A stretch of 64,000 nucleotides of DNA from a virus (IMGVR_UViG_3300009095_000011:32001-96000), one strand, 5' to 3'. Shown: positions 545 through 16,963, counted from the first letter of the stretch. Numbers and translations are program-made. Notes: generated from the sequence alone by a model not told the origin.

Positions 545-638
545 TATTCAATTTTTGTTTTTTACCACCGCACAAAAAAGAAAAGAAAAGAAAAAGGTTA
601 GTCTTTCGATTCAAGTTCTGTGCTATAATACCGCACCA

Positions 639-771
639 GCTTATAACAGCGTGTATAAAAAATGGCGGGTTCTCGGTTAATTTAAAGTTTTATAATTCTA
701 ATTAAGTTCTGCGTTTTCTGAAAGTTTTGGAGTTCTAATCCGCCACTTCTTATACACGCAAAACGTTAGTT
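639..771 (+). repeat. attC-like hairpin site A (array 1)
   Basis: Left arm gcttatAAC-a-gcgtgtataaaaaatggcgg and right arm ccgccacttcttatacacgc-aaaac-GTTagtt form an imperfect inverted repeat bounded by AAC and GTT. Confidence 0.8.
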
Positions 772-1044
772 TCCATTTGGATAAGCAGCATTACCATCTT
801 TTAAAGACCAGTGCCATCCATCATTCATCGTGTGTTTACGTGGTTTTCTATAAGCCTTTTGTCCGTTACTTAAATATGCCAATGTCTTAGACACATCTAC
901 AACTTTCACAGCTTCCATCCTGTAATTATGATTTAGTACACCATGATATTTACGAACAAAAACCACGTCACCAATTTCTAAAAAACGGCAACTAACACCC
1001 GCTATAGTGCATGGCTGTTCGTTTTTTTCTGATATTGTATCCAT
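766..1044 (-). CDS. Cassette-encoded hypothetical protein; starts inside the loop of attC-like site B
   Basis: ORF track, 92 aa. Reads through the left arm as QPCTIAGVSCRF; the TAA stop overlaps the GTT core at 765-768. Confidence 0.7.
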   Translation of the reverse strand: MDTISEKNEQPCTIAGVSCRFLEIGDVVFVRKYHGVLNHNYRMEAVKVVDVSKTLAYLSNGQKAYRKPRKHTMNDGWHWSLKDGNAAYPNGN

Positions 1045-1111
1045 AATTTAAAGTTTATTTACTGTTTGGGTGCGTTGTTGAAAGCCACGCACCATAGCTT
1101 TTACGTTGTAG
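987..1111 (+). repeat. attC-like hairpin site B (array 1)
   Basis: ggcaactAAC-accc-gctatagtgcatggct ... agccacgcaccatagc-ttttac-GTTgtag. ggcaactaac is complementary (9/10) to the cassette start gttagtttcc at 765. Confidence 0.8.
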
Positions 1112-1120
1112 GTAATAAAC

Positions 1121-1330
1121 CTACTCATATACTCGTAACACAAAAGTTACAGATTTCTTACACCTGTCCTCAGCCATCCATTCTCCATCCTCAGTTAAAT
1201 AGCTTTCATCTGTATTCTCAAAATAATTAGTATACAGTAACTTTGGGATTAAATCATCTCCGTCAGCCAGATTGTACACCTTACCTTTTGTGTAACTTTC
1301 TTTTATCTCTTTAATTAATTTCTTTGCCAT
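1121..1330 (-). CDS. Cassette-encoded hypothetical protein
   Basis: ORF track, 69 aa; lies between gttgtaggta (1105) and tacctacaac (1368-1377). Confidence 0.7.
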   Translation of the reverse strand: MAKKLIKEIKESYTKGKVYNLADGDDLIPKLLYTNYFENTDESYLTEDGEWMAEDRCKKSVTFVLRVYE

Positions 1331-1367
1331 GTTATCAAGTTTTCGTTTTCAAATCCGTAGGCTTACA

Positions 1368-1426
1368 TACCTACAACACACGCTAAAACGCCATACAAGT
1401 ACAGGCGTTTAGCTACATCGTTAGTA
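1368..1426 (+). repeat. Short attC-like hairpin site C (array 1)
   Basis: tacctacAAC-acac-gctaaaacgcc ... ggcgtttagc-tacatc-GTTagta, about 59 bp, with one extra A in the left arm. Confidence 0.75.
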
Positions 1427-1430
1427 GTCA

Positions 1431-1682
1431 TTACTCATCATCTTCAGGATAAATAGACACGCCTTTTCTTTCACAGGGAGTTTTGCCACAATATTTACAA
1501 TAGCCTTCAGGCAACGAACCGCTAACATCGGCTAAATCCAATGCTTTGTTTCGTTTCAATTCATCAATTCCCCTTCTTACATATTTCTCTACATCAATAC
1601 CTTCGCTTTCAAGATAGGCTGTAGCTCCTTCGGAAGTATCAATATCAAATCCATTTACTATAGTCATAATTTTCGTTTTCAA
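1431..1682 (-). CDS. Cassette-encoded hypothetical protein with C-terminal CxxC; starts inside the loop of attC-like site D
   Basis: ORF track, 83 aa; reads through the left arm as ALDLADVSGSLP. Confidence 0.7.
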   Translation of the reverse strand: MKTKIMTIVNGFDIDTSEGATAYLESEGIDVEKYVRRGIDELKRNKALDLADVSGSLPEGYCKYCGKTPCERKGVSIYPEDDE

Positions 1683-1714
1683 ATTCGCACTGGTTTAGTC
1701 GCGGCACGTTATAT
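1517..1714 (+). repeat. attC-like hairpin site D with a long coding loop (array 1)
   Basis: aaccgctAAC-at-cggctaaatccaatgc ... (about 140-nt loop) ... gcactggtttagtcg-cggcac-GTTatat. Confidence 0.7.
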
Positions 1715-1724
1715 TTGCGAACCG

Positions 1725-2177
1725 TTATTTCCCTCTCGCATCCCAACATAACTGATCTACCATCTCATTCCATTGATTTCCTGCATGACCACGAACCCAC
1801 TTGAAGGTAACGTTTGGCAAGGACAATTTGAGAGAATTGAGATACTGCCACAATTGTTGGTTTGCTATTGGTTTTCCTGATGTACTGTACCATTTCTGAT
1901 CAATCCATTGTTTGAGCCATAAATTAAGCCCTGTGATACAATATTTACTATCACTTAATACAATCACCTTATCAGTGATGTTATTGTCTCTGAGCCACTG
2001 TAAACCCTTTGTAATAGCTGTTAATTCCATGATGTTTGATGTGACGTTGTGTGCATCTCCATGATCGAAATGAATAAGGTCATCATCTTTAATTACAACG
2101 AAGGCCCATGCACCATATTTATGATGCTTTGATTTTGGGTTATTGGAGCAGCCACCGTCTGTGTAGATGTAGATCAT
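1725..2177 (-). CDS. rnhA: Ribonuclease HI
   Basis: Motifs IYTDGGCS, TSNIMELTA, SDSKY, WVRGHAG and NEMVDQL. The likely start is ATG at 2177 rather than 2243. Confidence 0.92.
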   Translation of the reverse strand: MIYIYTDGGCSNNPKSKHHKYGAWAFVVIKDDDLIHFDHGDAHNVTSNIMELTAITKGLQWLRDNNITDKVIVLSDSKYCITGLNLWLKQWIDQKWYSTSGKPIANQQLWQYLNSLKLSLPNVTFKWVRGHAGNQWNEMVDQLCWDARGK

Positions 2178-2691
2178 CTTCCACAAATTAACATTAATAC
2201 TCTTATTAATATAAACCCAATAACTTTCTTTAAAGAAATCCAAAAGAACAAAATTGACAAATGGATTGATTCTTTAAATATGTGAAACCAGAAGATTATT
2301 TTTTGCTTTTGAACCATTCGTATAATCCGACTAATGCAAAGATAATTATTGCTCCTGCGAATGATAAGATTACTTGTGTCATTACTGTAAATTTAAGTTA
2401 AAAATTTTATTATTAATATTGACTTTTATATACCAAGTGTAAACTATATTATCACTATAGGTCATAAAGTCAATGAATAATCTGATTCTCTTTTCTTTAT
2501 TTGATATTGATTTGATGATTTTCATCATTTTTTCAAATAAGTTTTATCAATAATTCGTTTATTTATTGCTTTAAGGTTATCAACATACAAAGGAAAGGTA
2601 TTGAGAATAGCTATCTGCTCTCGCTTAAGTTGCAATTGTCGTTGCATTGCTAATTCAATTCGGTTTATGAGTTGAATGGTTGATTGTGAGG

Positions 2692-2895
2692 TCATGATTT
2701 TACAAATACTTTTTTAATGTGCAACCTTGTACTATCTTTCCCTGGCTTATCGAAGTAATCTCTGATATATTCAACAGCCTCTTCGTAGGTGTCTTTGACT
2801 TCCCATTGTTTGAATACTTCGATCATCATCTGCTCTATTCCAGAATCAAAAATACATTCAGTGGATAATTCTCCGATTATGAATTGCTCTTTCAT
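2692..2895 (-). CDS. Hypothetical protein
   Basis: ORF track, 67 aa, directly downstream of a copy of the phage promoter motif. Confidence 0.6.
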   Translation of the reverse strand: MKEQFIIGELSTECIFDSGIEQMMIEVFKQWEVKDTYEEAVEYIRDYFDKPGKDSTRLHIKKVFVKS

Positions 2896-2904
2896 CTCTA
2901 TAAC

Positions 2905-2960
2905 TTTTAGTTAAACATTTATTACTCTGTAAATATAATCATTGTATTTATAAGTTGCAA
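2905..2960 (-). promoter_or_regulatory. Phage promoter motif (Bacteroidota sigma-like)
   Basis: Minus strand reads TTGCA-N-TATATTTAC followed by ATGTTTAACTAAAA. Similar copies lie near 5700-5745, 16990-17015, 47140-47190, 49860-49910 and 59545-59600. Confidence 0.65.
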
Positions 2961-3118
2961 CTATTATTATATATATTTTATATAATATTTAATATAATAT
3001 ACTTCTTTTCCCTTTGTATTTAATATATTATATATAAATAATATCCTTTTTTAAGTTATATATAAACTTGACCTGTATGGTTTGCAAGGCAAAGCAAAAC
3101 ATACAAATAAAGGTCTGA

Positions 3119-3931
3119 TCACACTTTGTGGGATTTGCCATTTATGTGGTTAAGTTTATTGTCGTTGAAAAAAGACAAAGGAGAGGTTAGTAGTGTATTG
3201 CATAAACGCATGTGAATATTTACCATACCTTTCTTTTTTTTATCAAATATATAGAAAGTTTTGGGATTAAGTCTGCTAACATTATCATTAAGGTAGGTAG
3301 TGATATGCATTTTATCTACCATGATGCTATTATTTTGCACAGACATTAAACCTTGCTTTCTTAGTTTTGATTGAATTTTACAAGCTGCCATTCTCGTTTT
3401 CAATCCTAATCGATTAGCCATAGCACGTTGAGAAATTTGATAACCGCCCTCTGAATAAGCCCTGCAAGGTTTGTTATCTCGTTTATCAATGTAAAAAAGC
3501 CTCTGTTCTAATCGATATTGATCAAAATGATATATGACTTCAAGTAATTTGTTTTTGCTATTAATTAAGTCATGAGGTATTTTTATTATTTCATTTGCAT
3601 TTTTATATCCCCTTCCACTTCTCTTAGGTTCGAATCCTAATTTTTGCCATAGTTTATCATAGGAAAGCAATTGATAGCCAACGTGTTTATTGTTTTTATC
3701 ATACACAATAATGGCTATTTCATTATCTACCATTGATTTAAATCGTTCTCTAATGGTAGCCTTATTGATATTAAGATGGCAGGAGATTTGTTTTAGGTAG
3801 TTTTTTTTATAGAAGTATCCAGAATCACAGAAAGATTTTAATTGCATGAAAAAAAGATAGTCATGCTTTAAGCCTGCTTTGGAAGCTTTCTCAATAGTTC
3901 CTTCGAGATATTTAATGGGATTGGATCTCAA
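3119..3931 (-). CDS. Putative DNA-binding / replication-initiator-like protein (HTH)
   Basis: Basic 270-aa protein with HTH-like segments (ISQRAMANRLGLKTRMAACKIQSKLRKQG), next to a very AT-rich tract at 2940-3070. Confidence 0.45.
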   Translation of the reverse strand: MRSNPIKYLEGTIEKASKAGLKHDYLFFMQLKSFCDSGYFYKKNYLKQISCHLNINKATIRERFKSMVDNEIAIIVYDKNNKHVGYQLLSYDKLWQKLGFEPKRSGRGYKNANEIIKIPHDLINSKNKLLEVIYHFDQYRLEQRLFYIDKRDNKPCRAYSEGGYQISQRAMANRLGLKTRMAACKIQSKLRKQGLMSVQNNSIMVDKMHITTYLNDNVSRLNPKTFYIFDKKKKGMVNIHMRLCNTLLTSPLSFFNDNKLNHINGKSHKV

Positions 3932-4107
3932 CTATATATAAAAGAAAAAGACCAGACTATTGCAGGATTATCTGGCCTTTTTGATTATTGGATTAAAAAA
4001 CTTAATTCAATTAATCATCCATAATCCTGCGAACTAAAAAATTAATTGAATTTTGTGTGAAATTAATATAATTGAAATTAAGATGCAAGTTTTTAGGTAA
4101 TTATTTT

Positions 4108-4458
4108 TTAATTTTCTATTTTTTGACATTCAGTAATATCAAAGGTTTTATAAAATCCTCTTCCAGACAATACTAGCGTCAATTGTGTGGAATAATAACC
4201 ATTATTATATCCATATCCTGGAATTTTAATAGAATGTCCATTAATTGGAATTAACTCTATTCCATAATCTTCTATTTTTTTAAAGAAAAAATCATTTGTT
4301 AAATTAAATTCTAATCCTTCAAAATCACTTAATTCTAAATCATCGAGTAATAAATAATGATTTTCGCAACAATCTGATATATGTTCTGAATATAACTTTA
4401 TTTCATTTTCAAATTCAATATATTCAGAATTTACTTTTATTACTTTTAATTTTTCCAT
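4108..4458 (-). CDS. Hypothetical phage protein (DCCE...NNGYYS type)
   Basis: ORF track, 116 aa. Confidence 0.65.
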   Translation of the reverse strand: MEKLKVIKVNSEYIEFENEIKLYSEHISDCCENHYLLLDDLELSDFEGLEFNLTNDFFFKKIEDYGIELIPINGHSIKIPGYGYNNGYYSTQLTLVLSGRGFYKTFDITECQKIEN

Positions 4459-4555
4459 TTTACTTATTTTAAACGTTTATAATCAATTTAATTACTTTCT
4501 GGATAGATGACACTACTCACAATGAGAAAGTGTCTCAGATCAAGGGAAAATAGCC

Positions 4556-4663
4556 TTAAAACAAAATCTTGACAAGAAAGATTAAGGCAGCAATGATCAT
4601 ACACCAAATAAAGGTTGAAATGCTGACTTGCACTTGATCTTTTCGTTTACCTTGGTAGTTCAT
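4556..4663 (-). CDS. Small putative membrane peptide (35 aa)
   Basis: Manual translation MNYQGKRKDQVQVSISTFIWCMIIAALIFLVKILF; abuts the stop of the upstream gene. Confidence 0.5.
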   Translation of the reverse strand: MNYQGKRKDQVQVSISTFIWCMIIAALIFLVKILF

Positions 4664-4665
4664 TA

Positions 4666-5052
4666 TTATAATGGTTTACTATTATACCATTTGATAAACT
4701 CAACAATTGATTTGTGCGCTCCTTCAATATGTATTTCAGTAACAGCACAATGTATATCTACTTCTAATGAATCACCATAGCAGCAATGGTTTTTACTTGG
4801 TCTTTCAATTCGATCCAGATAGTCTTTTATTTTTCTATAAACAGGCATGAGCCAATCCCATGAGGAATGAAATTTTAAATGATTTACATGCAACCCCTCT
4901 GTTTCTTCAAAATCTTGATATTGATGAATGCGAACTTTAGAATTTTGTTCAACAATACCATTTTTTCTTAATCCATATAAAATTCCCATAAATTCGGCAA
5001 TTAATTTATTGCCCTCAAGTATATCGTTTTGCTCTAATGTTTTCATTTTCAC
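4666..5052 (-). CDS. Hypothetical phage protein
   Basis: ORF track; NKLIAEFMG...FHSSWDWLMPV pattern typical of small phage ORFs. Confidence 0.7.
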   Translation of the reverse strand: MKMKTLEQNDILEGNKLIAEFMGILYGLRKNGIVEQNSKVRIHQYQDFEETEGLHVNHLKFHSSWDWLMPVYRKIKDYLDRIERPSKNHCCYGDSLEVDIHCAVTEIHIEGAHKSIVEFIKWYNSKPL

Positions 5053-5231
5053 TTAGTTTTAGTTACATAATATTCTGTTACTGGCACCACCTTACCTCCT
5101 ATGTATTCAAGTTTATTAATCTCATGCTTATTTGATACAGTAGCATTTAAGTTATGAGTACAAGAGGTGAGGGATAGGTAGGTAAGAATTATCACAAGGA
5201 TGACAATTGCTATTTTTCTATGAGTTGACAT
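5049..5231 (-). CDS. Putative small lipoprotein
   Basis: Basic N-terminus, hydrophobic stretch and an LTSC lipobox-like motif. Confidence 0.5.
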   Translation of the reverse strand: MSTHRKIAIVILVIILTYLSLTSCTHNLNATVSNKHEINKLEYIGGKVVPVTEYYVTKTK

Positions 5232-5440
5232 TAGACTGTTCTTTTAAGTATTCCTAGTTTAGTACATTTATTGTAGTCAGCAACTATTCTTAATTGAATA
5301 TTTGGCTCAATTTCAATTGTTTTGATTGTTAGGCTATCAAGGATAGTTGCTTTGCTACAAATAGCTTCCATTTTATCAGCGATTTGTCTTAATTCATCTG
5401 GCGTTGTGAAGTACCAGATAGTTTTAGTTGAGTCAATCAT
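5231..5440 (-). CDS. Hypothetical protein
   Basis: ORF track; stop/start overlap with the neighbouring gene. Confidence 0.55.
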   Translation of the reverse strand: MIDSTKTIWYFTTPDELRQIADKMEAICSKATILDSLTIKTIEIEPNIQLRIVADYNKCTKLGILKRTV

Positions 5441-5454
5441 TGTTGTATGGGTTG

Positions 5455-5709
5455 TTAATATTTAATAAGATTATAGTTTTTATCAAGCTCTATGGATTTT
5501 GTCCATTCCTTGAAGGCTTTTAATTCAGGTTTTCTATTTAAAAATTCTTCTGGATCTTCTCCAAATTTTCTACCTAAAATATGAGAAGCTAGTGCCATTT
5601 TAATATCTGATATTACATTCATCATATTGGTTTTATTGCCATTTGCTTGTTCTAATCTTTTTTTAAATCTTTCTATTCTTGTCATTTCTTTATTCTTTAG
5701 GTTAAACAT
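5455..5709 (-). CDS. Hypothetical protein
   Basis: ORF track; downstream of the promoter motif at about 5715-5745. Confidence 0.55.
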   Translation of the reverse strand: MFNLKNKEMTRIERFKKRLEQANGNKTNMMNVISDIKMALASHILGRKFGEDPEEFLNRKPELKAFKEWTKSIELDKNYNLIKY

Positions 5710-5761
5710 CTATGTAAATATAAGATTTATATTTAATATATGCAAATGTTTATATAAAAAA

Positions 5762-5791
5762 TAAGGTGTGATAAATTAATACCACACCTTA
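5762..5791 (-). terminator. Putative intrinsic terminator
   Basis: taaggtgtg...cacacctta hairpin followed by a T-run on the minus strand. Confidence 0.55.
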
Positions 5792-5817
5792 CGCAAATAT
5801 AGATGATTAACAGAGAA

Positions 5818-6615
5818 TTAATTAAGATGTCGAAAGTGAACGAAGTCAGCTTTAGATTTGTAATTGAAGATTTCTTCAAACAAGGACAGATATTGTTTAA
5901 CGTCAGTGCATTTAATCAGTTTACCATGCTGCATTGAAACTTTATGAAGCATTTTCTCATGGTCATAATCCTCATTCTTCATCAGTCTGCTGATTGCATT
6001 CATGAATGACTTACTTTTATAATGTGGAAAATATTGACCGTAATCATTGATTGCAGAAATAATTTCCTGAGCCTGACCGAGAGATTTAACTTTAAATTCT
6101 CCTTTCTCAAATTGTTTGATCAATTTTGATGATGGTTGAGTTGAGCCGCCATTAAGTACTCCAATGGCGGCATAGATGCTGATATCATTATGTTGTGCAA
6201 AATCTCTGACAATTTTATAATCTTCAAAATTTTTACTGACATAAAAATCAAGATAGTCATTGAGTTTCCAATCGTCGGCAGAGCTATTTATACGAGCTAT
6301 GTCGCCTTCATCGAATCTTTCGCTGATCTTATAATAGATAGCTACTCCAAGCTTCTTAGCGGCCTCAAAACGATGCTGTCCATCTAAGATCCATAATTCG
6401 CGATTCACTGTCATTGGGTAATCGTGAAGGAGGTTTTTTTGCTTAATGCTCTCTACTAATTCATCAACATGTTTCCAGTTGATTCTGCGATTTGTTCTAT
6501 AATAATTGAACAAAGCATAGTTCTTAGTAGATTTAATTTGTAATTCATCCTTTTTAGGAGTGTAATTAAGATTAGAATTTTCTTTTCTTGTTTGTTGTTT
6601 TTCTACAGTTTTCAT
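5818..6615 (-). CDS. ParB/Srx-like N-terminal domain protein
   Basis: NRRINWKHVDELVESI...PMTVN...ILDGQHRFEAAKKLG motif. Confidence 0.8.
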   Translation of the reverse strand: MKTVEKQQTRKENSNLNYTPKKDELQIKSTKNYALFNYYRTNRRINWKHVDELVESIKQKNLLHDYPMTVNRELWILDGQHRFEAAKKLGVAIYYKISERFDEGDIARINSSADDWKLNDYLDFYVSKNFEDYKIVRDFAQHNDISIYAAIGVLNGGSTQPSSKLIKQFEKGEFKVKSLGQAQEIISAINDYGQYFPHYKSKSFMNAISRLMKNEDYDHEKMLHKVSMQHGKLIKCTDVKQYLSLFEEIFNYKSKADFVHFRHLN

Positions 6616-6712
6616 AATACAATTATAATTTGGTTGTTAATTATTGAACTGTAAATATAACATTAATATTTCATATTTGTTATATCAAACAAGAAAAAAA
6701 ATAAAAATATTT

Positions 6713-6955
6713 TTATAAATGCGTAGAAATGAGAAAATTAAAGCATTCTTCAAGAATAAAATTATGCGCATAGCTATCATCAAATGGATAACTAAGTACT
6801 GCTTTGAAGCATGTTACATAGCCTAAATAAAAATTATAAACATCCTTCCATTCACTTTCCTGAATAACTATTTCGGGATTATGGTGTAAAACAAGAAAAG
6901 AGAGCTTTGATTTTAGCTCTCCTTTAGATAAGATTTTGATTTGGGGGGATTTCAT
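6713..6955 (-). CDS. Hypothetical protein
   Basis: ORF track; ATGA-type overlap with the upstream gene. Confidence 0.55.
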   Translation of the reverse strand: MKSPQIKILSKGELKSKLSFLVLHHNPEIVIQESEWKDVYNFYLGYVTCFKAVLSYPFDDSYAHNFILEECFNFLISTHL

Positions 6956-7269
6956 TTTTTAAATTGTTCTCTGATTTTTTTATCCATTTCTTTACTTTTC
7001 TCCTGAACTCCGTTTTTAATACTATCCTGCTTTGATCGTTTACTGAAAGCTTGTTGACGTTCATCTTTACTTTTTAATCCTCCTTTATCATAAGTACCTC
7101 TTCCGAAAGTTAGCAAAGAAGGGATTGAAAGTTGGCGTTTCATCTTTCTTCCACAATAGCAAGTACATTGAGCAATAGTAGCTTCACTTGGTTGATCACA
7201 TTCGCTCATAGAGTGAGTGATTTCTTTATATTCATCGCAGTTGATACAGTAATAATTGTATGTGGGCAT
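6952..7269 (-). CDS. FmdB-like zinc-ribbon protein
   Basis: MPTYNYYCINC...CYCGRKMKRQLS pattern. Confidence 0.75.
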   Translation of the reverse strand: MPTYNYYCINCDEYKEITHSMSECDQPSEATIAQCTCYCGRKMKRQLSIPSLLTFGRGTYDKGGLKSKDERQQAFSKRSKQDSIKNGVQEKSKEMDKKIREQFKK

Positions 7270-7362
7270 ATTTATTTGTTTTTAAAAAGCATAATTTTAT
7301 ATATAAGTTTAAACGCGACAAATAAAGCTAAAACGAATGAAATTAAATTAATAATCATAAGT

Positions 7363-7899: not shown

Positions 7900-7909
7900 A
7901 TTTAGTCTA

Positions 7910-8368: not shown

Positions 8369-8382
8369 AATAGGTAAATTTA

Positions 8383-10233
8383 CTAATTTAAATGCACAAT
8401 TTCGCTTATTGCGTTGATTTTCTTAACAATGATGATATTCTCATAATTGATATTTGCAATATAATTATTACTATCATCTTTCTCAACATTAACAAGTTGA
8501 CTAATTAATAAGATATTGATATTGATATCATTGAGAGATTTAACAAGAATTTCAATACCTAATGAATCAAGTGATTCCAATATCTCATCCAGGACAATGA
8601 AGTTAAGCCCTCTGCCATCAGTTGAGATATTAATGAGCTTCTGCATAGCAAGGATGACAGATATTTCAATACGTGCTTTCTCACCACCTGATAGACCATA
8701 GAATGAACCAACATCAATTCCATTCTTTAATACAATGACATTGATCTTTTCTCTGATATCTTTACCCTTATTGACTTCTTTATATCCCTCAATTTTGATT
8801 CTGATATTAGATTTTAATTGCTCAAGATAAAAATTAGCATAGCTCTCAATTGCACATAATGATTGATTGGCAAGATAACCTTTGAACCTTTTGAAATTGA
8901 TCAGCCATTCTTCACATTTAGACAATTGTTGATTTGTATCTTCTAATTGTTTTTGATATTGTTCATTCTCAGATTGTAAAGTTTCAATCTTTTGTAAAGT
9001 CTCTGCATCTTTTGAATTTTCTATTTTACTGAGGTCTTTAATAGTGCTTTCAAATGATTTGTTTTCATTATTGAGCATATTGATTTCACGAGTGTATTTA
9101 GTGATATCAAATTGTAATTCATCATATTGAGATTGACTGTATTTTTTATCCTTTTGTAGCTGTTCCAGTTGAGTATTAATAATCTGTTGCTGGAATAGAA
9201 CGTCTTTAAGAGATTCCTGGATGATAGGAAGATTCTCTCTTAATTCTACAAGGGGAATTGATTTATCTTTGAATGAGAATTTATGATTGCAATTTGGACA
9301 CTGTACTTCATCGCCCAAATGTTTTTCAATATCCCTTAATACAGTTTCATATTCTTTTTCAGTAGTTTTAAGTTCTTTTAATTGTGGATCAAATTCACTG
9401 ATTGATTTAGTGTAATCAGCAAGCAATAATTTATGATCTTCAAGGTAAGATTGATTACTTTCAATTAATTGTTTCTTGACTTCAATTTGTTCAATATTGA
9501 CAGTAATTTTATCTTGATATTGCTTAATCAGTTCACCATTATCATTGCTATCTTGATCAATACTTTCAATGTAAGCCTCAATCTTACTTTCATTAGCGTG
9601 AATCCTTCGCTCTAAGGCATTCTTTTTATCTGAATAAGTATTGATGTCGTCTTTAATAGAATCATCGATAGGATCAATTATATATGCCTTAGAGAACCTA
9701 TTAATAAGATCTTTCTTGGCAGTATCGGAACTATTAAAGAATGAGGTATATTTTTCTTTACTGATAATGAAGTAATCAGAGATATGATCACTTGAAAGTC
9801 CAAATGTTTCCAATACAAACGATTTGCATTGATTAACATCAAGTCTTTTCTTTTCCTGATCGTTTACAAGCAAGTGTTCAGGAACTTTGTCATTAATTTC
9901 AACCCAATATTCAGATGGAGTAGTATTGGCAAATACTTTCTTTCTGATATATAGAGTTTGATTGAGTACTTCGCTTCTAAACCAACCCTCAACTATAAAG
10001 AATTTTTCACCATAAAATATTGCATTGGCTTTATTGATCTTTCGTAGGTATGAATCTGTAGTAAGGAAATATAAAGCCTCAATGATCCAGCTTTTACCAC
10101 TTCCATTGCTTTTCTGCCCATCATCAGTTTCATTAATTCCACAAAGCAAGGAAGTTTGGTTGGTGGGGAATGTGTATTCGGTGTTTTTATGGGAACCGAA
10201 ATTAGTAAGTACGATTTTATGAGGTGTGTACAT
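8383..10233 (-). CDS. sbcC: SbcC/Rad50-like recombination ATPase
   Basis: Walker A NGSGKS, coiled coil with CPNC zinc hook, LSGGE signature and Walker B IVLDE. Confidence 0.92.
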   Translation of the reverse strand: MYTPHKIVLTNFGSHKNTEYTFPTNQTSLLCGINETDDGQKSNGSGKSWIIEALYFLTTDSYLRKINKANAIFYGEKFFIVEGWFRSEVLNQTLYIRKKVFANTTPSEYWVEINDKVPEHLLVNDQEKKRLDVNQCKSFVLETFGLSSDHISDYFIISKEKYTSFFNSSDTAKKDLINRFSKAYIIDPIDDSIKDDINTYSDKKNALERRIHANESKIEAYIESIDQDSNDNGELIKQYQDKITVNIEQIEVKKQLIESNQSYLEDHKLLLADYTKSISEFDPQLKELKTTEKEYETVLRDIEKHLGDEVQCPNCNHKFSFKDKSIPLVELRENLPIIQESLKDVLFQQQIINTQLEQLQKDKKYSQSQYDELQFDITKYTREINMLNNENKSFESTIKDLSKIENSKDAETLQKIETLQSENEQYQKQLEDTNQQLSKCEEWLINFKRFKGYLANQSLCAIESYANFYLEQLKSNIRIKIEGYKEVNKGKDIREKINVIVLKNGIDVGSFYGLSGGEKARIEISVILAMQKLINISTDGRGLNFIVLDEILESLDSLGIEILVKSLNDININILLISQLVNVEKDDSNNYIANINYENIIIVKKINAISEIVHLN

Positions 10234-10811
10234 TATGATTTATTGGATTTAAGACTAAATGCTGCCCTTACAAGACTAAGATATGTTTCATCTCTAATAT
10301 GATATCCTTTTCGGTGCCAATGTGGTATTCTCATTAAACAATCTCTAACAACTCTTAGATCATCAAATGAAGTAGGTATTAATTGTTGTTGATCAAAACT
10401 TACTCTATCAATGTGAATTGTATTTGCTTCCAATTCTTTTTTGTATCCAATCTTTCCATTTTGTATTATAAATTTAGATTGGCTTATTTTAAATTCAAAT
10501 TGAGTTGTGGGAACTTTAAGCAATTGAATAATAATTCCGTTAAAATTATAAGTCTTAGCTGTTTTAGTTTCATACATAAAAACAAAATCTTTATTATCGT
10601 TTATGAAATTGCTGAAACTTAAATCAGTTGTTTCAAAATCATAATCTTTAGGATCTCTATCATCTAATATATCAACAACTGCACCACCAATTAGGTGAGC
10701 TTCAATATAGCTATATTTTTTATTTTCATTTGCTTTAGCAATAATCTCCATAAACTGTTTAATGACAGGATGAGATTCTAATTTTTCAATCATTTGCAAT
10801 TCAGTCATCAT
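10233..10811 (-). CDS. Nucleotidyltransferase (PolyA-pol/CCA-head-like)
   Basis: IGGAVVDILDDRDPKDYDF, i.e. a GG...DxD motif. Confidence 0.65.
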   Translation of the reverse strand: MMTELQMIEKLESHPVIKQFMEIIAKANENKKYSYIEAHLIGGAVVDILDDRDPKDYDFETTDLSFSNFINDNKDFVFMYETKTAKTYNFNGIIIQLLKVPTTQFEFKISQSKFIIQNGKIGYKKELEANTIHIDRVSFDQQQLIPTSFDDLRVVRDCLMRIPHWHRKGYHIRDETYLSLVRAAFSLKSNKS

Positions 10812-11833
10812 ATCTCTTTCAATTTTTCAAGTCCATATTTATTATCAGTAATTTTATTATCGCTACAGAACGATTTAAAAGCGTCTACAATCGATTTTTT
10901 ATTATGGGTGATGTTCTTACTCATTTCCTTATCAGATAATGGCTTATCGACGGTATTATGGCTTAAATCAAAGGAGATACCAGCTTGAGTTAACAAGGAA
11001 GTGTCAAATGACTTGACTTTGGCTTGATCACCCTTGATTTTGATTCGGATATTATTGCCACTTTGTTTTTCTTGTTGAAGTTGTAGGATTTCTTTTGAGG
11101 TAAGTTGTTCAACATTGATTTCATATTTGATGTACAAAGGAAAGTGAGATTGAATAAATTCAATTGATCCATCATTATAAAGAATTGTAAAACCCTTTTG
11201 ATCATCCTCTCCAAAGTTGGCCTGATATGTACTTCCGATATAATGAATTGGGAATTGATCAAAACTCTGTCTATTATGGAAATGACCTACTAAAGTTTTA
11301 TCAAATTGTGCAAATGCATTTGCTGGCACTACATCTTGTTGCACTGATCCATCATTATTATTTACCCCGTTGATTGCAACATGGGTTAGGAGGATGTTTG
11401 TTTCTTTAGTATCAATATTGATATCTTGCAATCTTTGCATATAACTTCCAGATTCTTTGAAGAATGGCAGAAAATGTACATTAATGTTGCCAAAATGTAC
11501 ATTTGAATAATCTCGTATAACTACAAAGATAGTTGAATTGAATACATCAAGAAAGCTATCCTCACTATCATAATCTGTTCGATCGTGATTACCGGCTATG
11601 ATGGCCACCATGATCTTATTATCTTTGAACTTATCAATTATCCTCTGAGTAGCCTTTAATACAGATAATGGCTGTCCAGTACGTGAATTAAACCAATCCC
11701 CACCATGAAGGATTGTGTCTATTTTCAATTCCTTGCATTTAGCAATAGCCTGATCAAAGATGTTTTCTACAAGAGAAATATTGTCAGGCTTTAGGTGTGT
11801 ATCTGTTAGTATGAGTGCTATGGGTTTCTTCAT
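10808..11833 (-). CDS. sbcD: SbcD/Mre11-like metallophosphoesterase nuclease
   Basis: TDTH, GGDWF, GNHD and GHFH motifs; adjacent to the SbcC-like gene. Confidence 0.92.
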   Translation of the reverse strand: MKKPIALILTDTHLKPDNISLVENIFDQAIAKCKELKIDTILHGGDWFNSRTGQPLSVLKATQRIIDKFKDNKIMVAIIAGNHDRTDYDSEDSFLDVFNSTIFVVIRDYSNVHFGNINVHFLPFFKESGSYMQRLQDINIDTKETNILLTHVAINGVNNNDGSVQQDVVPANAFAQFDKTLVGHFHNRQSFDQFPIHYIGSTYQANFGEDDQKGFTILYNDGSIEFIQSHFPLYIKYEINVEQLTSKEILQLQQEKQSGNNIRIKIKGDQAKVKSFDTSLLTQAGISFDLSHNTVDKPLSDKEMSKNITHNKKSIVDAFKSFCSDNKITDNKYGLEKLKEI

Positions 11834-12011
11834 GTTCTCTTTTGATTGCTTGTAAATTATCTTCTATGTATTCAAACACTTCTCGGTAAGTTTTATAAGT
11901 GTAAGATTTAGGGCTTATGTTTTCTTTAAGCCACAGTAAATGATGCGCAGGAACGTAAATCATTTCAGTTCCCTTATGTTTACCAAATGGCATTATATCG
12001 GTGTCTTTCAT
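11784..12011 (-). CDS. DUF3820-like small protein
   Basis: MPFGKHKG...VPAHHLLWL motif; likely start MKDTD at about 12011. Confidence 0.7.
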   Translation of the reverse strand: MKDTDIMPFGKHKGTEMIYVPAHHLLWLKENISPKSYTYKTYREVFEYIEDNLQAIKREHEETHSTHTNRYTPKA

Positions 12012-12021
12012 AGCACAGTAA

Positions 12022-12138
12022 TTAAGAATTGACAAACTTCTTTACTCTATTGGGAATGCGAGGTAATTCACGAAATTCTGCAAGAAGATGTTGATCTGTG
12101 AGATCATGAGGCAGGATGCCTATATTGATGCGAGTCAT
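12022..12138 (-). pseudogene. denV: Truncated pyrimidine-dimer glycosylase (T4 endonuclease V-like) N-terminus
   Basis: Manual translation MTRINIGILPHDLTDQHLLAEFRELPRIPNRVKKFVNS* matches the DenV N-terminal MTRIN...L.DQHL.AE.RELPR pattern but stops after 38 aa. Confidence 0.8.
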
Positions 12139-12197
12139 GTTACAATTTTTGTTTACGATTTATGATGTAAATGTAAGGATTATATTTCGCAAAGTCA

Positions 12198-12444
12198 GTG
12201 AACTACACATCCACACTTCGTGATGAATGTGCTTCGAGTTTCATAGCTTGTGCTTACTGCTTCCGAAGAAGTTAGGAGTCTTATTTTTGCTCCACTCGTG
12301 TACTCGCAAGTCCCTTACGAGGTTTTAATGTCTTATACTGACAATGCAAATATATAACAAATATTTTAATCTACCAAATTATTTTGTATTTTTTGTCGCT
12401 TACATCCAAACCACTAAAGATGGTTTGGTTTTACGCTCCGTCAT
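12198..12444 (-). mobile_element. Non-autonomous IS200/IS605-family mini-element (LE + promoter + omegaRNA-like RE, no ORF)
   Basis: Terminal hairpins (catccaaaccactaaagatggtttgg and acatccacacttcgtgatgaatgt). On the minus strand it is preceded by TTTAT and ends ...GTAGTTCAC. It contains a TATATTTG promoter and a GTGGAG...ATAAGAC...CTATGAA...GAAGC tract resembling tnpB 3' ends. Confidence 0.65.
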
Positions 12445-12445
12445 A

Positions 12446-12476
12446 TAAAAATGGGGGAGAAATATTCTCCCCCATC
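12446..12476 (-). terminator. Intrinsic terminator after the SSB gene
   Basis: atgggggaga-aatat-tctcccccat hairpin plus TTTTT on the minus strand. Confidence 0.75.
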
Positions 12477-12504
12477 TCTAACAACCATATAACCTAAACA
12501 ACAA

Positions 12505-13665
12505 CTATTTACCTTTATTCATCTTAGCTTTTAATGCAGCTAATTTTTGCTTCATTTCGTCAGGAGAAAGATTTTTTGATGGATAATTCTGCACAGGATC
12601 AGCTTCGACAGCAACCTTTTCAACTTCTGGCTCAGATTCATCCTGCTGCATTTCTTTGATCCACCTATCATCCTTACCATTAGATTGATTTACAGGATGA
12701 TCAGCTTTAGGTTGACCACCTTTTTCAAATGGCAAGCCATTATCATCAGTATCATCGCTATCTTTTGATTCAGGAGCATCAGGATACAAGGCAGCAAGTT
12801 CTTCGCATACATTTAGGAAATCATCATCTGCAAATACTCCAAGTGCATTTTGTTGATCGTATAGTTCAAGTCCCTCAATTGCTTTCTCAAAATCTTTAGA
12901 AGTATAAGAATTAACAAATAAGGATTCTAAAGAATCCATTTCGGCAAACTTTTCAAGATCGCTATCTGAAAGAGGTGCTGAAATTGGAACAAAATCTTTA
13001 GTAACGAAACTAACCTTATATACATCTTGAGGCTTTACATCATCGCCAGTGTTATATACAATCTTTACCAAACGTCCTGTATCTGGATCAGTGAACGGAT
13101 CAACTTGCATAGGTTGATCTGAATCTTCACTCATACCCAATTCATCTTGTTTGTATTTGATAGAGGGTTTTACTTCTAAACGACCAAAAGAAGTTCCTTT
13201 GGAGTTTTTAACATTAGCATATCCTACCCAAGAGTACACAGGATTAATTCCTGTTTTCCAGTGGTACAACGAATCAATCTTTTTCTTGATTTCAGACGCA
13301 TCTGTTTCATCTCTTTGAATGATTCTTTTTGCTGCTGCTATATATTCCTCAACAATATCTTTAGGTGTGCCAGCATGAATACGAGCATTAAACACAGGTC
13401 GCTTTTTTAATTCAACCTTTTTCTTACCCTTATCGTCAGTTGTTTCTATATTAAAAGGCAACCAACTGATACATTTTTGATAAATATAGCTCAGAGTATT
13501 GGGGTGTGGTGGATACCACCTTACAACATTATCTCCCTTCTCAAGATTGATATATCCTGGACGAGTGTTGTTGTTTTTAGGTCTAAGAGCTTCTGCTTCT
13601 TGTTTTTGTTTTTGTAGGTCAGCTACTTTAGCTGCCTGAAATTTTGACCGATCAAATTTTGCCAT
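12505..13665 (-). CDS. Putative single-stranded DNA-binding protein (gp32-like)
   Basis: GDNVVRWYPP, DPFTDPDTGRLVKI and a long acidic C-terminal tail; upstream of sbcCD. Confidence 0.65.
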   Translation of the reverse strand: MAKFDRSKFQAAKVADLQKQKQEAEALRPKNNNTRPGYINLEKGDNVVRWYPPHPNTLSYIYQKCISWLPFNIETTDDKGKKKVELKKRPVFNARIHAGTPKDIVEEYIAAAKRIIQRDETDASEIKKKIDSLYHWKTGINPVYSWVGYANVKNSKGTSFGRLEVKPSIKYKQDELGMSEDSDQPMQVDPFTDPDTGRLVKIVYNTGDDVKPQDVYKVSFVTKDFVPISAPLSDSDLEKFAEMDSLESLFVNSYTSKDFEKAIEGLELYDQQNALGVFADDDFLNVCEELAALYPDAPESKDSDDTDDNGLPFEKGGQPKADHPVNQSNGKDDRWIKEMQQDESEPEVEKVAVEADPVQNYPSKNLSPDEMKQKLAALKAKMNKGK

Positions 13666-13722
13666 TGTTTAATTTAATTGTTTTTGCTTTGTTTATATAT
13701 ACCTTATTGATTGAATAAGTTC

Positions 13723-14037
13723 TTAATTATTATTGATTACAACGAATTGATTTGCATTGAATGTGATGGGCTTGTCTTTGATGAAGATCGACTGAATCTC
13801 TTCAAATTCAAAGTGAAGGATTCCATTAATGACATGCTGTCTTTTGATTGTGTAATTGTTGAATAATCGTGGGAGGTCTGGTTTTAATGCCTTGATGATT
13901 CGTTTATCTAATTGATGAGAGAAATCATCATTAATACAAAAAACCTTAATTTTAACAGTTTTGTTTACAATTTCCATAATAGCCTTATTAGTTTGAAAAA
14001 TTTTGATAAAAATAATAGATCGTGATTTAAAACACAA
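13723..14037 (-). CDS. Hypothetical protein
   Basis: ORF track; the start is uncertain. Confidence 0.5.
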   Translation of the reverse strand: MCFKSRSIIFIKIFQTNKAIMEIVNKTVKIKVFCINDDFSHQLDKRIIKALKPDLPRLFNNYTIKRQHVINGILHFEFEEIQSIFIKDKPITFNANQFVVINNN

Positions 14038-14045
14038 GCAAAATA

Positions 14046-14624
14046 TTAATTTTTAATTTCATAACCTGCTTCATTTGGCGATGGAATATACACATTGTGC
14101 TCTATTGCAGCCCAATCTCTTATTGATTCAATATATTGACTAAATTCATAAGTGTCTTTGTCAGTGGTTGTTAATGGAATATTTCGAGTTTGAGTGATTG
14201 TAATAAACTTACCATACTTAGGCCAATTGTCAATATCAATCACTGTATATTTTGGTAACAAAGGGAGCTTATTGGAACTGATTAGCATATCATTGATATC
14301 TTTTTCTTCGAGATATTGTGCAGGTTTTTCAAATTCAAATATACTATCATCATAAACCTCAAAGTATTCGGTTTTTATTTCAATCTTTCTGCTATTGAAT
14401 TGTAGTTTGAGAATCTCATGCATCTCATCTGTATTATATCCAAAATAATCACTAAGGATTTTAACTACCACTGCAAAATAGTAACTGTTCTGTTCCCTTG
14501 ATCTATTTCTTCGATACTTCTTTATAGAAAACCAGTAAGCAATATCTTCAAGTGTTTCAAGATGTTTGAGTACTTTATCTCTGTGATGAGGATTAGACCA
14601 GTCTATAAGGATATCAAGGTTCAT
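14046..14624 (-). CDS. NinB-like recombination protein with internal insertion
   Basis: [13 protein letters not shown]...EMHEILK and TT...[14 protein letters not shown]...IPSPNE motifs. Confidence 0.7.
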
Positions 14625-15433
14625 ATTGGTAATGGAATTTTATTGAGCAAATTAGTACTTACATGGGTGTATATTTCTGTAGTCTTACTTGAATTGTGTC
14701 CTAATAACTTCTGAATTATCCTTATATCAGTTCCATTCTCTAACAATGAAGTTGCACTTGAATGTCTTAATTGATGAAAATGATATTGATTGCCCAAATA
14801 TTTCTTTATAATTTGATTACAAGAAGTGGATGAATATTGAAGACAATTTTGACCATTAAATAAATATTCTTTTGGTTTATATTGTTTATAATAGTCTCTA
14901 AGTAATTTAAGAATATTTTCACTTAATGGGACAACTCTATCTTTTCTACCCTTGGCATTTTTGATATTAATTATCATTCGCTTACTGTCAATATCCTTAA
15001 TTTTAAGATTGATTACCTCAGATACCCTAAGTCCTACAGAATATGCAAGCGAAATAATTGCTTTATGTTTAATGTTTTCAATCTTGGGAATCTTATCTAA
15101 AAGATATTTTTGATCGATTATTTGAGGTAATTTTTTCTCTTTCTTTGGTCTGGTAAATGAAACCTTATCATACTTTTTGTTTAAGCCAAACTTATATAAA
15201 AACCTAATGGCATTTATGACTTGATTTTGTTGAGAAATAGAGGAGAAATTGTATTGATCAAGATAGGATTGGAAATCGCTTGCAACTAAATGTTGATAAT
15301 ACTTACCTGTACTTTGAATAAACTTATCTATATAGTGAATATAGATACTTATCGTTCTTTCTGAGTAATTAAGATATTTAAGCTTTCGTTCGCAAATCTT
15401 TAAAATATCTTCTTTTTTCTTATTCATAATCAA
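14621..15433 (-). CDS. Tyrosine recombinase, integron-integrase-like/Xer-like, without the IntI I2 insertion
   Basis: N-terminal SAM-like YSERTISIY...[14 protein letters not shown]; catalytic R (GLRVSE), K (KGRKDR), HQLRH, LGH and Y (TTEIYTHV). Probable ATG at 15427. Confidence 0.92.
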
Positions 15434-15472
15434 TAGTTTACAAGTTAAATCTTATATATAATAGTTAGGCAC
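15434..15472 (+). other. Candidate attI-like primary recombination site
   Basis: Non-palindromic site next to the integrase start, ending ataataG/TTAGGCAC, with further GTT repeats at 15436 and 15444. Confidence 0.55.
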
Positions 15473-15480
15473 AATAAAAA

Positions 15481-15786
15481 TTATTCCTCTGGTGTATCTA
15501 ACATATATCTCCAATATTTAACGTCTGTAAAATCAGTGTACCAACTACCAGCACCTAAAATAAACCAATTATATTCGTGTTTGGGACTACCAGTTCTTTT
15601 TATCAACTGTAATTTTGCTGGAGTCCATATATCATCATAAAACACCAAAACATAATCACTTTCTCTTTTTTCTTCAACACTTCCTTCTCTTTTATCGCAT
15701 TCTGCAATTTCCCAAACTTCATTTCCTAGTTTTGGTATTTCATTAATTGTCAGTTTATAGTCCATAATTTTAAAAGTGCCTAACAA
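15481..15786 (-). CDS. Cassette 1 hypothetical protein (array 2)
   Basis: ORF track; flanked by GTTAGGCAC (15464) and GTGCCTAAC (15776). The likely start is the internal MDYK. Confidence 0.7.
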   Translation of the reverse strand: MLGTFKIMDYKLTINEIPKLGNEVWEIAECDKREGSVEEKRESDYVLVFYDDIWTPAKLQLIKRTGSPKHEYNWFILGAGSWYTDFTDVKYWRYMLDTPEE

Positions 15787-15901
15787 AGTGTATAAGCAAT
15801 AGCCGTTAGACGTTTTAAACTATTGCAGTTGTTAATAATAATTTTTATTCTTCTAGTCAAGTTTTGTGTTCGGCTACTGCTCATACACTAAACCGTTGTG
15901 C
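15776..15901 (+). repeat. attC-like hairpin site 1 (array 2)
   Basis: gtgcctAAC-aa-agtgtataagcaatagccg ... cggctactgctcatacact-aaacc-GTTgtgc. Confidence 0.85.
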
Positions 15902-15907
15902 GCAATA

Positions 15908-16177
15908 CTACTCCGCTGGCTCATACGTTTTCACAAATATATCAGGCTTGCAGGGGTAAAATTCACCGTGTACGCCCTTTATAATCCAATCGCCTTTACG
16001 GGCTAAGTGGTCGCCTTCAAGAGTTTCAATGTAAAATGTTTGCGTTCCCATTTCTCCGGGCTTCCACTTGGTTAATCCCATATTCATAATGTGCTGCCAG
16101 CTTTCATCTGTGCCATCCCATTGAGCAGCTTCAATTACAACAGGTTTCTTTCTAAATTTCATATTCGTACTGCGCAC
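15908..16177 (-). CDS. Cassette 2 conserved small phage protein (PGDYG-like)
   Basis: [11 protein letters not shown]...IETLEG...[23 protein letters not shown]. Confidence 0.8.
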
Positions 16178-16301
16178 AACACAAAATAAAATGCAGTGGG
16201 TTGTACGTCTTATTTACACTGCTTGCCTGTCTGTTAGTTTCGGTCAGTCGGACAGCTCAGGCTTATCTATCCCACCGACATTTTATTCAAATTCGTTGTA
16301 G
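16167..16301 (+). repeat. attC-like hairpin site 2 (array 2)
   Basis: gtactgcgcacAAC-acaa-aataaaatgcagtggg ... cccaccgacattttatt-caaattc-GTTgtag. The left end is complementary (13/14) to gttgtgcgcaatac at 15895. Confidence 0.85.
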
Positions 16302-16305
16302 GCAA

Positions 16306-16587
16306 TTAGTCTGCCCTTTCACCACTTCCAAAACAAGTAAGACAGGGCAATATTTCATTAGTACCTTTACCACTAAAACCTTCGCCTTCACAATTCGGGC
16401 AAACTAACTGTTCGCTTTGCCCTACAACATTAGATAAAACCAATAATGCTTGGTCTATCTGCCGTTCTTCTTCTTGTAATTCAGACGCTATTTCAGCTAT
16501 ATACTGATCTACTTCTTTTGGCATTTTCTGAAACTTTTTATCTATTTCAGACTTTCGTTTTATAAGGATGTTTATTACTTTCTTCAT
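16306..16587 (-). CDS. Cassette 3 protein: coiled-coil N-part encoded in the attC loop plus a CxxCxGxG zinc-finger C-part
   Basis: 93 aa; reads through the left arm as ALLVLSNVVGQSEQL; CPNCEGEG and CLTCFGSG motifs. Confidence 0.75.
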   Translation of the reverse strand: MKKVINILIKRKSEIDKKFQKMPKEVDQYIAEIASELQEEERQIDQALLVLSNVVGQSEQLVCPNCEGEGFSGKGTNEILPCLTCFGSGERAD

Positions 16588-16619
16588 CGCATTACTGTTT
16601 TTATCATTATACGTTGTGC
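16417..16619 (+). repeat. attC-like hairpin site 3 with a long coding loop (array 2)
   Basis: ttgccctacAAC-atta-gataaaaccaataatgc ... gcattactgtttttatc-attatac-GTTgtgc. Confidence 0.75.
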
Positions 16620-16620
16620 G

Positions 16621-16836: not shown

Positions 16837-16963
16837 AACATTGTATATAAATCAGTGGCGTTGTACGTCTATTTTGAACCACCTTTGCTGTTAATTTAGT
16901 TTTGTGCGGTTAGCAATCTTACAGCTATTAATCGCCACCGCTTCATATACTTTACCGTTGTGG
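16825..16963 (+). repeat. attC-like hairpin site 4 (array 2)
   Basis: gcgcacAAC-att-gtatataaatcagtggcg ... cgccaccgcttcatatac-tttacc-GTTgtgg. The loop start resembles that of site 2 (cagtgg(g/cg)ttgtacgtct). Confidence 0.85.

Follow-up and report, generated by a model that had tools for sequence, protein, structure and literature searches.

The DNA analysed here is a stretch of 64,000 nucleotides (nt) from a phage genome (bases 32001–96000 of IMGVR_UViG_3300009095_000011; hereafter the window), and our subject is a set of small genes that begin inside attC-like hairpins and read through the recombination core. The viral record has 114,226 bp, is rated complete by CheckV, and has ends classed as linear by IMG/VR. 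The window contains about 30% G+C and carries nearly all of its genes on the minus strand. The hosts of the phage are Flavobacteria-type (Bacteroidota-type) bacteria; a DNA search of cultured phages gave a sole match, 127 nt of the hairpin named B0 to Cellulophaga phage phi18:3. The phage has two integron-like cassette arrays. Array A, a run of small minus-strand open reading frames (ORFs), extends from about −520 to 1725 in window coordinates and crosses the left edge, where locus L003 covers the overhang. Array B, a second cluster of small minus-strand ORFs at 15464–16990, abuts the gene of a Xer-like recombinase (Table 1).

On the plus strand, the arms that bracket each small ORF follow the pattern CGTT(G/A)(T/G)nnnnn ... 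nnnnn(A/C)(C/T)AACA, and their variable parts are exact reverse complements. Five perfect arm pairs of 8–10 nt are found in the window (1105–1114/1368–1377, 15464–72/15776–84, 15895–904/16171–80, 16295–302/16421–28, and 16613–22/16830–39), and a sixth pair, GTTATAAGC/GCTTATAAC, flanks a gene for a DNA methyltransferase of 265 residues. Genome-wide, there are nine perfect GTTRK-led pairs of 9 nt or more, compared with 3.4 expected from shuffles, and five of the nine lie within the two arrays. Consecutive bodies are separated by imperfect hairpins of ~60–135 nt, with AAC, a short spacer, arm, loop, arm, a short spacer, and GTT in succession. The z-scores of the folds range from −2.1 to −3.3 for five hairpins (B0, B1, A1, A3, and that of L003), and four of the hairpins can be aligned into a single family; an Rfam scan of window 1–17100 at an E-value of up to 1 returned no RNA family for the hairpins. 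For comparison, viral loci were fetched for 80 of the 210 IMG/VR relatives of the recombinase, these 80 being 58–72% identical to it; they yielded 370 complementary arm pairs, which gave 301 non-redundant cassettes with a length of 120 nt or more. Where a fetched locus extends over the upstream flank, the recombinase gene in most cases has upstream of it an array with this arm pattern, which can comprise as many as 16 cassettes. Across 150 hairpins (loci L004–L083 and the window), a median of 18 bp is paired against 7 bp in shuffles. A few arm types (GTTATGTGTA, GTTATACACA, GTTAGCACCA) recur in many related viral loci around bodies of widely differing length, and the hairpins of these loci fall into discrete size classes of ~40, 80, and 116 nt.

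The recombinase has its catalytic R, K, H-x-x-R, H, and Y residues visible in the sequence. Its best NCBIfam model is XerA-like (183 bits, cut-off 220). No recombinase more than 40% identical was found in cultured phages, and the bacterial homologues in species-representative genomes are mostly 40–55% identical, apart from one partial match of 74%. In the related loci the last arm ends 35–50 nt ahead of the recombinase ATG; as in integrons, a simple site of the attI type next to the recombinase gene marks the beginning of the array.

Table 1. Features of the two cassette arrays and of the outlying cassette (window numbering unless stated)
Feature	Coordinates	Strand	Details
Cassette with ORF 766–1044 (92 residues)	766–1105	−	Internal core, plus-strand AAC 994–996; peptide AG-V-SCRF; body up to arm/core 987–996; hairpin 990–1105, arms 1001–1020 and 1080–1098; ATG 1042–1044 in loop
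Cassette with ORF 1431–1667 (78 residues)	1421–1724	−	Internal core AAC 1524–1526; peptide AD-V-SGSL; enlarged hairpin 1522–1724, arms 1529–1544 and 1687–1701; ATG 1665–1667 in loop
Cassette with ORF 16306–16587 (93 residues)	16296–16613	−	AAC 16426–16428; peptide SN-V-VGQS; tail is a CxxCxGxG zinc-ribbon module, 16306–16398; hairpin arms 16433–16449 and 16589–16605; ATG 16585–16587
31-nt element, read VVGQSEQLV(C)	16399–16429	−	Val core GTTGTAGGGCAA, then second core-like GTTAGTTTGC
Decayed cassette with ORF 49617–49844 (75 residues), outside the arrays	49604–49860	−	AAC 49791–49793; peptide SD-V-RCSF
Fifth case, ORF of 70 residues	L003:4494–4706 (window −506 to −294), left of window		Peptide FA-V-SGAE; hairpin folds well
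Hairpin A1 of the DNA methyltransferase cassette	640–765	.	Untranslated; methyltransferase gene extends past the left edge of the window
Cassette with ORF 1121–1330 and short hairpin A3 (1368–1420)	1106–1420	−	ORF start within body; 10-nt perfect arm pair; fold
Tyrosine recombinase, Xer-like, 270 residues	14621–15433	−	Pfam Phage_integrase and Phage_int_SAM_4
attI-like junction	15434–15472	.	First core GTTAGGCAC at 15464–15472, ~30 nt from the recombinase start codon; hairpin-less
Two ordinary cassettes	15466–16295	−	ORF 15481–15765 with hairpin B0 15776–15904; ORF 15908–16162 with hairpin B1 16171–16305
Cassette with ORF 16621–16821 and hairpin B3, then mini-hairpin	16614–16990	−	B3 16830–16966; mini-hairpin 16956–16990

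Genes that read through the hairpin and its core

Five small ORFs of this phage begin in a hairpin and translate its core. As the initial annotation had proposed for the four in the window, each is present on the minus strand and reads the GTT of an internal core as valine, and each starts in an attC-like hairpin, or in a decayed one, whose arms pair between the internal core and the next CGTT. It was also right that ORF 766–1044 ends on a core, its TAA stop codon (766–768) sitting within the CGTTAG at 764–769. The start that it gave for the second ORF, a TTG codon at 1682, is unlikely; the ATG at 1667 is the likelier choice. The fifth ORF lies directly outside the window, beyond its left edge. 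Complementarity between the arm at the internal core and that past the stop codon is seen in ORF 766–1044 (GTTAGTTGCC and GTTAGTTTCC, 9/10 positions), ORF 1431–1667 (GTTAGCGGT and GTTAGTAGT, 7/9), ORF 16306–16587 (GTTGTAGGGCAA and GTTGTAGGCAA, 11/12 with one bulge), and ORF 49617–49844 (GTTAGGTGT and GTTAGGCGT, 8/9). Pfam searches with the small proteins gave sub-threshold matches only, DnaJ_CXXCXGXG reaching 15.5 bits for ORF 16306–16587.

The loops had been described as expanded to about 140 nt. This figure is approximate: from the internal core to the next CGTT there are about 117, 204, and 193 nt in the window elements and 127 nt in the fifth case. Two window elements, and slightly the fifth case, do exceed the common class of ~116 nt, but the remainder are not enlarged. 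In ORF 16306–16587 the ATG lies 1 nt past the arm, and the 139-nt loop is nearly all coding. ORF 49617–49844 was also considered as a chance match; this was rejected on the homology of its leader. The first 15 residues of that leader, MKNSKYIQSFNEHQE-SDV, match a widespread hairpin-encoded family, 12 nt of the translated arm have been deleted, and 8 of 9 positions agree between the flanking arms GTTAGGTGT and ACGCCTAAC. The leader homology and the 12-nt loss together identify a decayed cassette that has retained its head, as we call the part of a protein encoded by the hairpin; the part encoded by the body is its tail.

Starts of this kind recur in the related loci. The 263 cassettes whose ORF is co-oriented comprise 199 with an early ATG inside the body, 56 that read through the core to an upstream ATG, mostly 40–85 nt away, and 8 unclear ones; 64 in all lack an early in-frame ATG in the body. 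A hairpin was detected in 50 of the read-through cases, and in 48 of these it contains the ATG. ORF 16306–16587 has no in-frame ATG downstream of its core, and ORF 766–1044 has only one, at codon 43. The head of ORF 16306–16587 (codons 1–43) shows proportions of synonymous and nonsynonymous differences (pS and pN) of 0.45–0.52 and 0.02–0.03 among its homologues in L085, L168, and L169, and of 0.66–0.73 and 0.28–0.29 between these and the window. The pN far below pS indicates purifying selection on the protein and thus a coding head. Codons 44–60, which comprise arm, core, and linker, have a pS of 0 in six of six pairwise comparisons despite one to four amino-acid changes, which argues for a constraint on the nucleotides across these three segments. 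Translated and untranslated hairpins do not differ in stem strength, both having a median of 19 paired positions. The earlier proposal that the recombination site is also coding sequence is therefore upheld by the selection on the head, the frozen synonymous sites, and the equal pairing, and the true starts are very unlikely to lie downstream of the arm.

Could the open frames nevertheless be an artefact of ORF calling, produced by chance and stop-codon avoidance, with the true starts beyond the arm? Some features of the DNA lend themselves to such an error. The motifs GTTAG and GTTGTAG each bar one frame by a stop codon, AT-rich sequence offers many spurious ATGs, and a chance ORF from an upstream ATG crosses the core in the other two frames in 32–37 of the 199 ordinary cassettes. 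This explanation, already disfavoured, is very hard to reconcile with the scarcity of downstream ATGs in the two window ORFs and in the 56 related cassettes, with the strong purifying selection on the head, and with a leader kept in a cassette whose hairpin has decayed; we give it hardly any credence. The choice of frame speaks against it too. The GTT is a valine codon in 39 of the 56 read-through cassettes, is split as xxG-TTA in 14, and is read in the third frame in 3. Clustering (36 nt upstream, 70% identity) leaves 41 clusters, divided 27:11:3 in the same order, and at GTTAG cores, where the stop leaves two frames, valine is favoured 20:7 (p = 0.0096). Stop-codon avoidance had been suggested to explain part of the bias, and this holds: the bias is real, exceeds what avoidance accounts for, and is also inherited with hairpin subfamilies. 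Heads in the xxG-TTA frame (L037:1397, L071:2996, L023:2085) resemble lipoprotein or signal peptides, such as MKNLRTKLSY... followed by a hydrophobic stretch and a cysteine, and some hairpins may supply export signals.

Re-assortment of heads and tails, and movement of whole cassettes

The initial annotation had predicted in-frame fusions of N- and C-terminal modules at the valine and had suggested a search for one N-module joined there to different C-modules. Such proteins exist, and the homologues are not always colinear. For ORF 16306–16587, 23 homologues share the head and the linker VVGQSEQ and carry 19 distinct tails, and 15 share the tail and carry 14 distinct heads; the window's own protein is the only one that combines both. 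The head-variable junctions fall exactly before the valine, and the tail-variable junctions fall past SEQ(L), where there is a second core-like GTTAG 21–24 nt downstream of the valine. The tail is strongly conserved as protein (pS 0.60 and pN 0.074, window versus L087). The 31-nt element is conserved between variable heads and variable tails, with matches in L071, L084, and L087. In contigs of other studies it is covered far more deeply than its flanks and has loose ends on both sides; this abundance would fit a hot site of recombination or homogenisation through homologous exchange. ORF 1431–1667 has two homologues with its head and other tails (one with a VVGRSEQ linker) and one with another head and its tail, all joined at the valine. 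In the related loci, several leader families stand on unrelated bodies, for example MK..KHIK.FNE..ENLNISDVS, ...LHIADVI.RFL, and MKNLRTKLSY. By sequence comparison, the predicted fusions thus hold for ORF 16306–16587 and ORF 1431–1667 but not for ORF 766–1044 (see below).

Whole cassettes also move. In L017, one cassette is present twice: identity begins just past the preceding ...ATAAC, spans a hairpin of ~130 nt and the body, and ends at the cassette's own ...CCTAAC, and the downstream flanks of the two copies are unrelated. An initial comparison of cassette flanks gave syntenic duplicates only, and a relaxed search revealed this pair. In L085, the mini-hairpin directly abuts the leader of the ORF 16306–16587 homologue, and the window has exactly one extra unit between them, hairpin B3 with ORF 16621–16821, ended by AAC. 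The ends of the duplicated and inserted units lie 0–4 nt from AAC. The duplication and the insertion polymorphism together show that the mobile unit is a hairpin plus the gene reading away from it; because both move as one, a gene started in the loop is never split, and each gene travels intact with its own cassette, as had been claimed. The crossover of this movement probably lies between AA and C. Single modules are matched by contigs from three other studies, which end at 15776/15897, 15895/16173, and 16432/16615. Two contig joints, 15483/15763 and 16201/16827, were considered as excision products and rejected as mapping ambiguity, having 20–28 nt on one side within repeated arms. Also rejected was a reading of the arms as terminal inverted repeats of small transposons, as the moving unit has one hairpin and AAC at both ends.

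The layout is that of a classical cassette with its ORF on the other strand, so that the hairpin stands 5' of its own gene. Among the 301 non-redundant cassettes, the ORF is co-oriented with the recombinase gene in 234, opposite in 34, and not clear in 33; integron cassettes place the ORF upstream of its own attC under a platform promoter, and here it is on the opposite strand in 234 of the 268 cassettes with a clear ORF. In the window, hairpins B0 and B1 follow their ORFs on the plus strand, and both of these ORFs (15481–15765 and 15908–16162) start within the cassette body. At the outer end of array B stands the mini-hairpin, 35 nt with an empty loop (GTTGTGGTGCA ... TGCACAAC), which is kept between phages (window 16956–16990, L085:2944–2977) and may be an empty or minimal site.

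Mechanism and competing explanations

We favour, at somewhat better than even confidence, the view that the ORFs are real genes in integron-like cassettes, that hairpin and gene are mobile, that heads and bodies are re-joined at the translated core, and that the Xer-like recombinase is the likeliest agent. A cassette on its gene-sense strand consists of AAC, spacer, arm, loop, arm, spacer, GTT with a short specific arm, body, complementary arm, and AAC. In about a fifth of the cassettes (five in this phage), the start codon lies in the loop, so that the 3' arm and core are translated with GTT as valine, yielding a head of 17–54 residues with the typical ending L/I-x-I-S/P/H-D/N-V. Cassettes move as whole units, as comparison between relatives shows, probably by exchange at the AAC that is separated from the gene by the hairpin. 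In the course of evolution, heads and bodies have also been re-joined at the translated core, always in phase, giving chimeric families of small proteins. Under the proposal, the neighbouring recombinase would act on the folded gene-sense strand, with the 5' AAC as the usual point of exchange and the 3' GTT arm as an occasional one. Comparison establishes the pattern of re-joining; its mechanism, including an enzyme-catalysed exchange at the core, we infer from the DNA.

The main alternative to shuffling by the recombinase is homologous recombination through the conserved arm sequence. Ordinary homologous or microhomology recombination between co-infecting phages, via the conserved arm, core, and linker and in the manner of promoter-early stem-loop (PeSL) modules, would produce the chimeras, and the recombinase would move whole cassettes or serve otherwise. 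About 57 nt around the core are near-identical between the window and L085, with flanks at ~65%, a length that suffices for homologous exchange, and the 31-nt element is common to many contexts with breakpoints on either side. However, the head-variable junctions fall exactly at GTT over 14 unrelated heads whose upstream arms differ, most other translated hairpins have in common just the 5-nt core and a few arm bases, and the crossovers of whole units occur at the equivalent AAC position. We therefore consider homologous recombination doubtful as the source of the chimeras.

Several observations weigh against our proposal, and some of them fit homologous exchange. First, the tail-variable chimeras in L085, L168, and L169 are without complementary end arms, and L169 has the window's 3' arm around a different tail, so that some replacements at least were not single clean exchanges at the Val core; these chimeras are as homologous recombination would have them. 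Second, the four homologues of ORF 766–1044 are all colinear, with variable leaders ahead of an invariant GVSCRF. Third, the cases are not independent, because three of the five hairpins (those of ORFs 16306–16587, 1431–1667, and L003:4494–4706) belong to one subfamily. Fourth, the frozen synonymous sites could stem from recent gene conversion rather than from a constraint on the site. Fifth, the long-range stems of the two enlarged hairpins are missed by minimum-free-energy folding and come from direct alignment of the arms. Sixth, the recombinase scores 154 bits against the IntI model TIGR02249 (cut-off 265), with a match split in two where the IntI-specific domain would lie, and so does not have the extra domain by which IntI-type enzymes recognise extrahelical bases. 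Finally, the evidence from other samples consists of assembled contigs, and no recombination product at the translated core has been directly observed.

A role in RNA must be weighed as well. The hairpins could be mainly 5' structures of the messenger RNA (mRNA) that serve its stability, processing, or translation, the likeness to attC and the cassette boundaries being secondary. Stem mismatches on the gene-sense strand number 257 G.T against 30 A.C in the 150 hairpins, an excess that indicates selection on the fold of this strand. In classical terms, the gene-sense strand is the site's 'bottom' strand, and it is at the same time the mRNA strand, so that a role in RNA fits as well, which is a further point against our proposal; the start codon in, or directly past, the 5' arm also agrees with such a role. 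We nonetheless judge it improbable that the hairpins are mainly RNA structures, since the specific arms pair across bodies of 150–1000 nt and are adjacent in the excised circle only, the duplication and the insertion end exactly at AAC, the arrays of related loci stand at a fixed 35–50 nt from the recombinase gene, and the wobble pairs show a one-sided polarity that RNA pairing alone does not require. In 235 of these wobble pairs, read in gene sense, the G belongs to the 5' arm and the T to the 3' arm; in 22 the arrangement is reversed.

Returning to the recombinase proposal, a bolder form of it can be put forward tentatively. The translated core may be a true second exchange point, and the system as a whole a phase-locked device for protein assembly, analogous at the DNA level to exon shuffling, that combines loop heads with body tails. 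In eukaryotes, exon shuffling through phase-compatible introns likewise has a junction of fixed codon phase that keeps most recombinants in frame. Here, unlike exon shuffling, the joining would take place in DNA at a recombination core, free of splicing, in viral cassettes.

Other observations concern the arrays and their surroundings. An 18-nt direct repeat, TTTTCGTTTTCAAATYCG, at 1340–1357 and 1670–1687 closely precedes, in gene sense, the start codons (ATG) of ORFs 1121–1330 and 1431–1667 and may be a shared expression signal. The cassette gene at 15908–16177 (89 residues), which Pfam did not recognise, has 77–87% DNA identity over ~60–80 nt to genes of very different phages, namely Bacillus SPP1, Streptococcus, Acinetobacter 133/Acj9, Shewanella, and Vibrio phages. 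Arrays that have the arm pattern of the phage cassettes, with spacers of ~120 nt, occur in chromosomes and metagenome-assembled genomes of Flavobacteriia (Maribacter, Arenibacter, Aequorivita, Mariniflexile, and others; loci L091, L093, L138, L139, L155, L157, and L158, positions ~6840–12300). These bacterial arrays lie downstream of a recombinase gene (42–50% identical to that of the phage), start ~45 nt past its stop codon, and have larger cassette bodies of 400–1100 nt. Beyond array B, an ORF of 865 residues at 17039–19636 resembles ribonucleotide reductase and has, by eye only, an apparent large insertion with a Cys-led, intein-typical block at its beginning.

Relation to known systems and meaning

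The closest resemblance is to integrons. Shared with them are imperfect hairpins framed by AAC/GTT boxes and paired by arms inside these, complementary cassette ends, seen in the window pairs and the related loci, by which the site closes in the excised circle, an array that begins at a hairpin-less site by a tyrosine recombinase gene, methyltransferase cassettes, strand-specific folding, and a presumed crossover between G and TT or AA and C. Clusters of attC sites have been described in phages, including a Polaribacter phage, with a methyltransferase among the phage-borne cassettes, and predicted phage attC sites, including P12002L_attC2 of that phage, were recombined by IntI1 (Qi et al. 2023, PMC9892861). 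Almost no integrons were found in Bacteroidetes with IntegronFinder 2.0 (PMC9024848). Unlike integrons, the system described here has a 270-residue Xer-like recombinase without the IntI-specific domain, genes on the strand opposite to attC with the hairpin 5' of the gene, a hairpin translated in ~20% of cassettes that supplies the start codon and head, and heads and bodies re-assorted at a second core. None of these four traits appeared in the papers searched, which gave no account of translated attC loops, of inverted cassette genes beside a Xer-like recombinase, or of in-frame re-assortment of heads and tails.

Two other modular systems invite comparison. PeSL modules of T4-type phages, reportedly described by Arbiol and colleagues in 2010, are said to be intergenic stem-loops that flank small accessory ORFs in hyperplastic regions and are thought to mediate modular shuffling, as regulatory cassettes exchanged by homologous recombination. 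A PeSL is defined by an early sigma-70-type promoter and a stem-loop, repeated between ORFan genes, and Bacteroidota-type hosts use a different promoter consensus. PeSLs differ from the present elements in that they are without AAC/GTT cores, cassette-specific complementary ends, and an adjacent recombinase, and are not reported to be translated or to link halves of proteins. The pdif (XerC/XerD) modules of Acinetobacter plasmids use a Xer-type recombinase and lie between inversely oriented, alternating sites that are conserved 28-bp duplexes. The Xer-type recombinase and the bounding of gene modules by inversely oriented, alternating sites are shared traits, and under the recombinase proposal loop segments and bodies would both behave as modules. 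Unlike pdif sites, which are conserved duplexes of the 11-6-11 bp dif type, the present sites lie inside coding sequence and their arms co-vary; the arms differ between elements yet are complementary within each, which argues for folding and against a fixed duplex site, and the G.T polarity points to the folding of one strand.

Recombination sites of integrons are regarded as non-coding marks that separate genes. In these cassettes the site belongs to the gene itself: it provides the start codon and a head of 17–54 residues, stays foldable while translated, and has had protein halves re-joined in frame at it dozens of times. As such it would be a natural case of a recombination site on which coding and structural constraints act together, and gene callers and integron finders that assume the bacterial layout will mis-annotate such cassettes. 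The arrangement may hold a clue to the birth of new cassettes, an open question for integrons, and would offer a testable route by which phages invent small proteins. If the translated core is indeed an assembly device, it would make new small proteins on the time scale of the arms race between phage and host.

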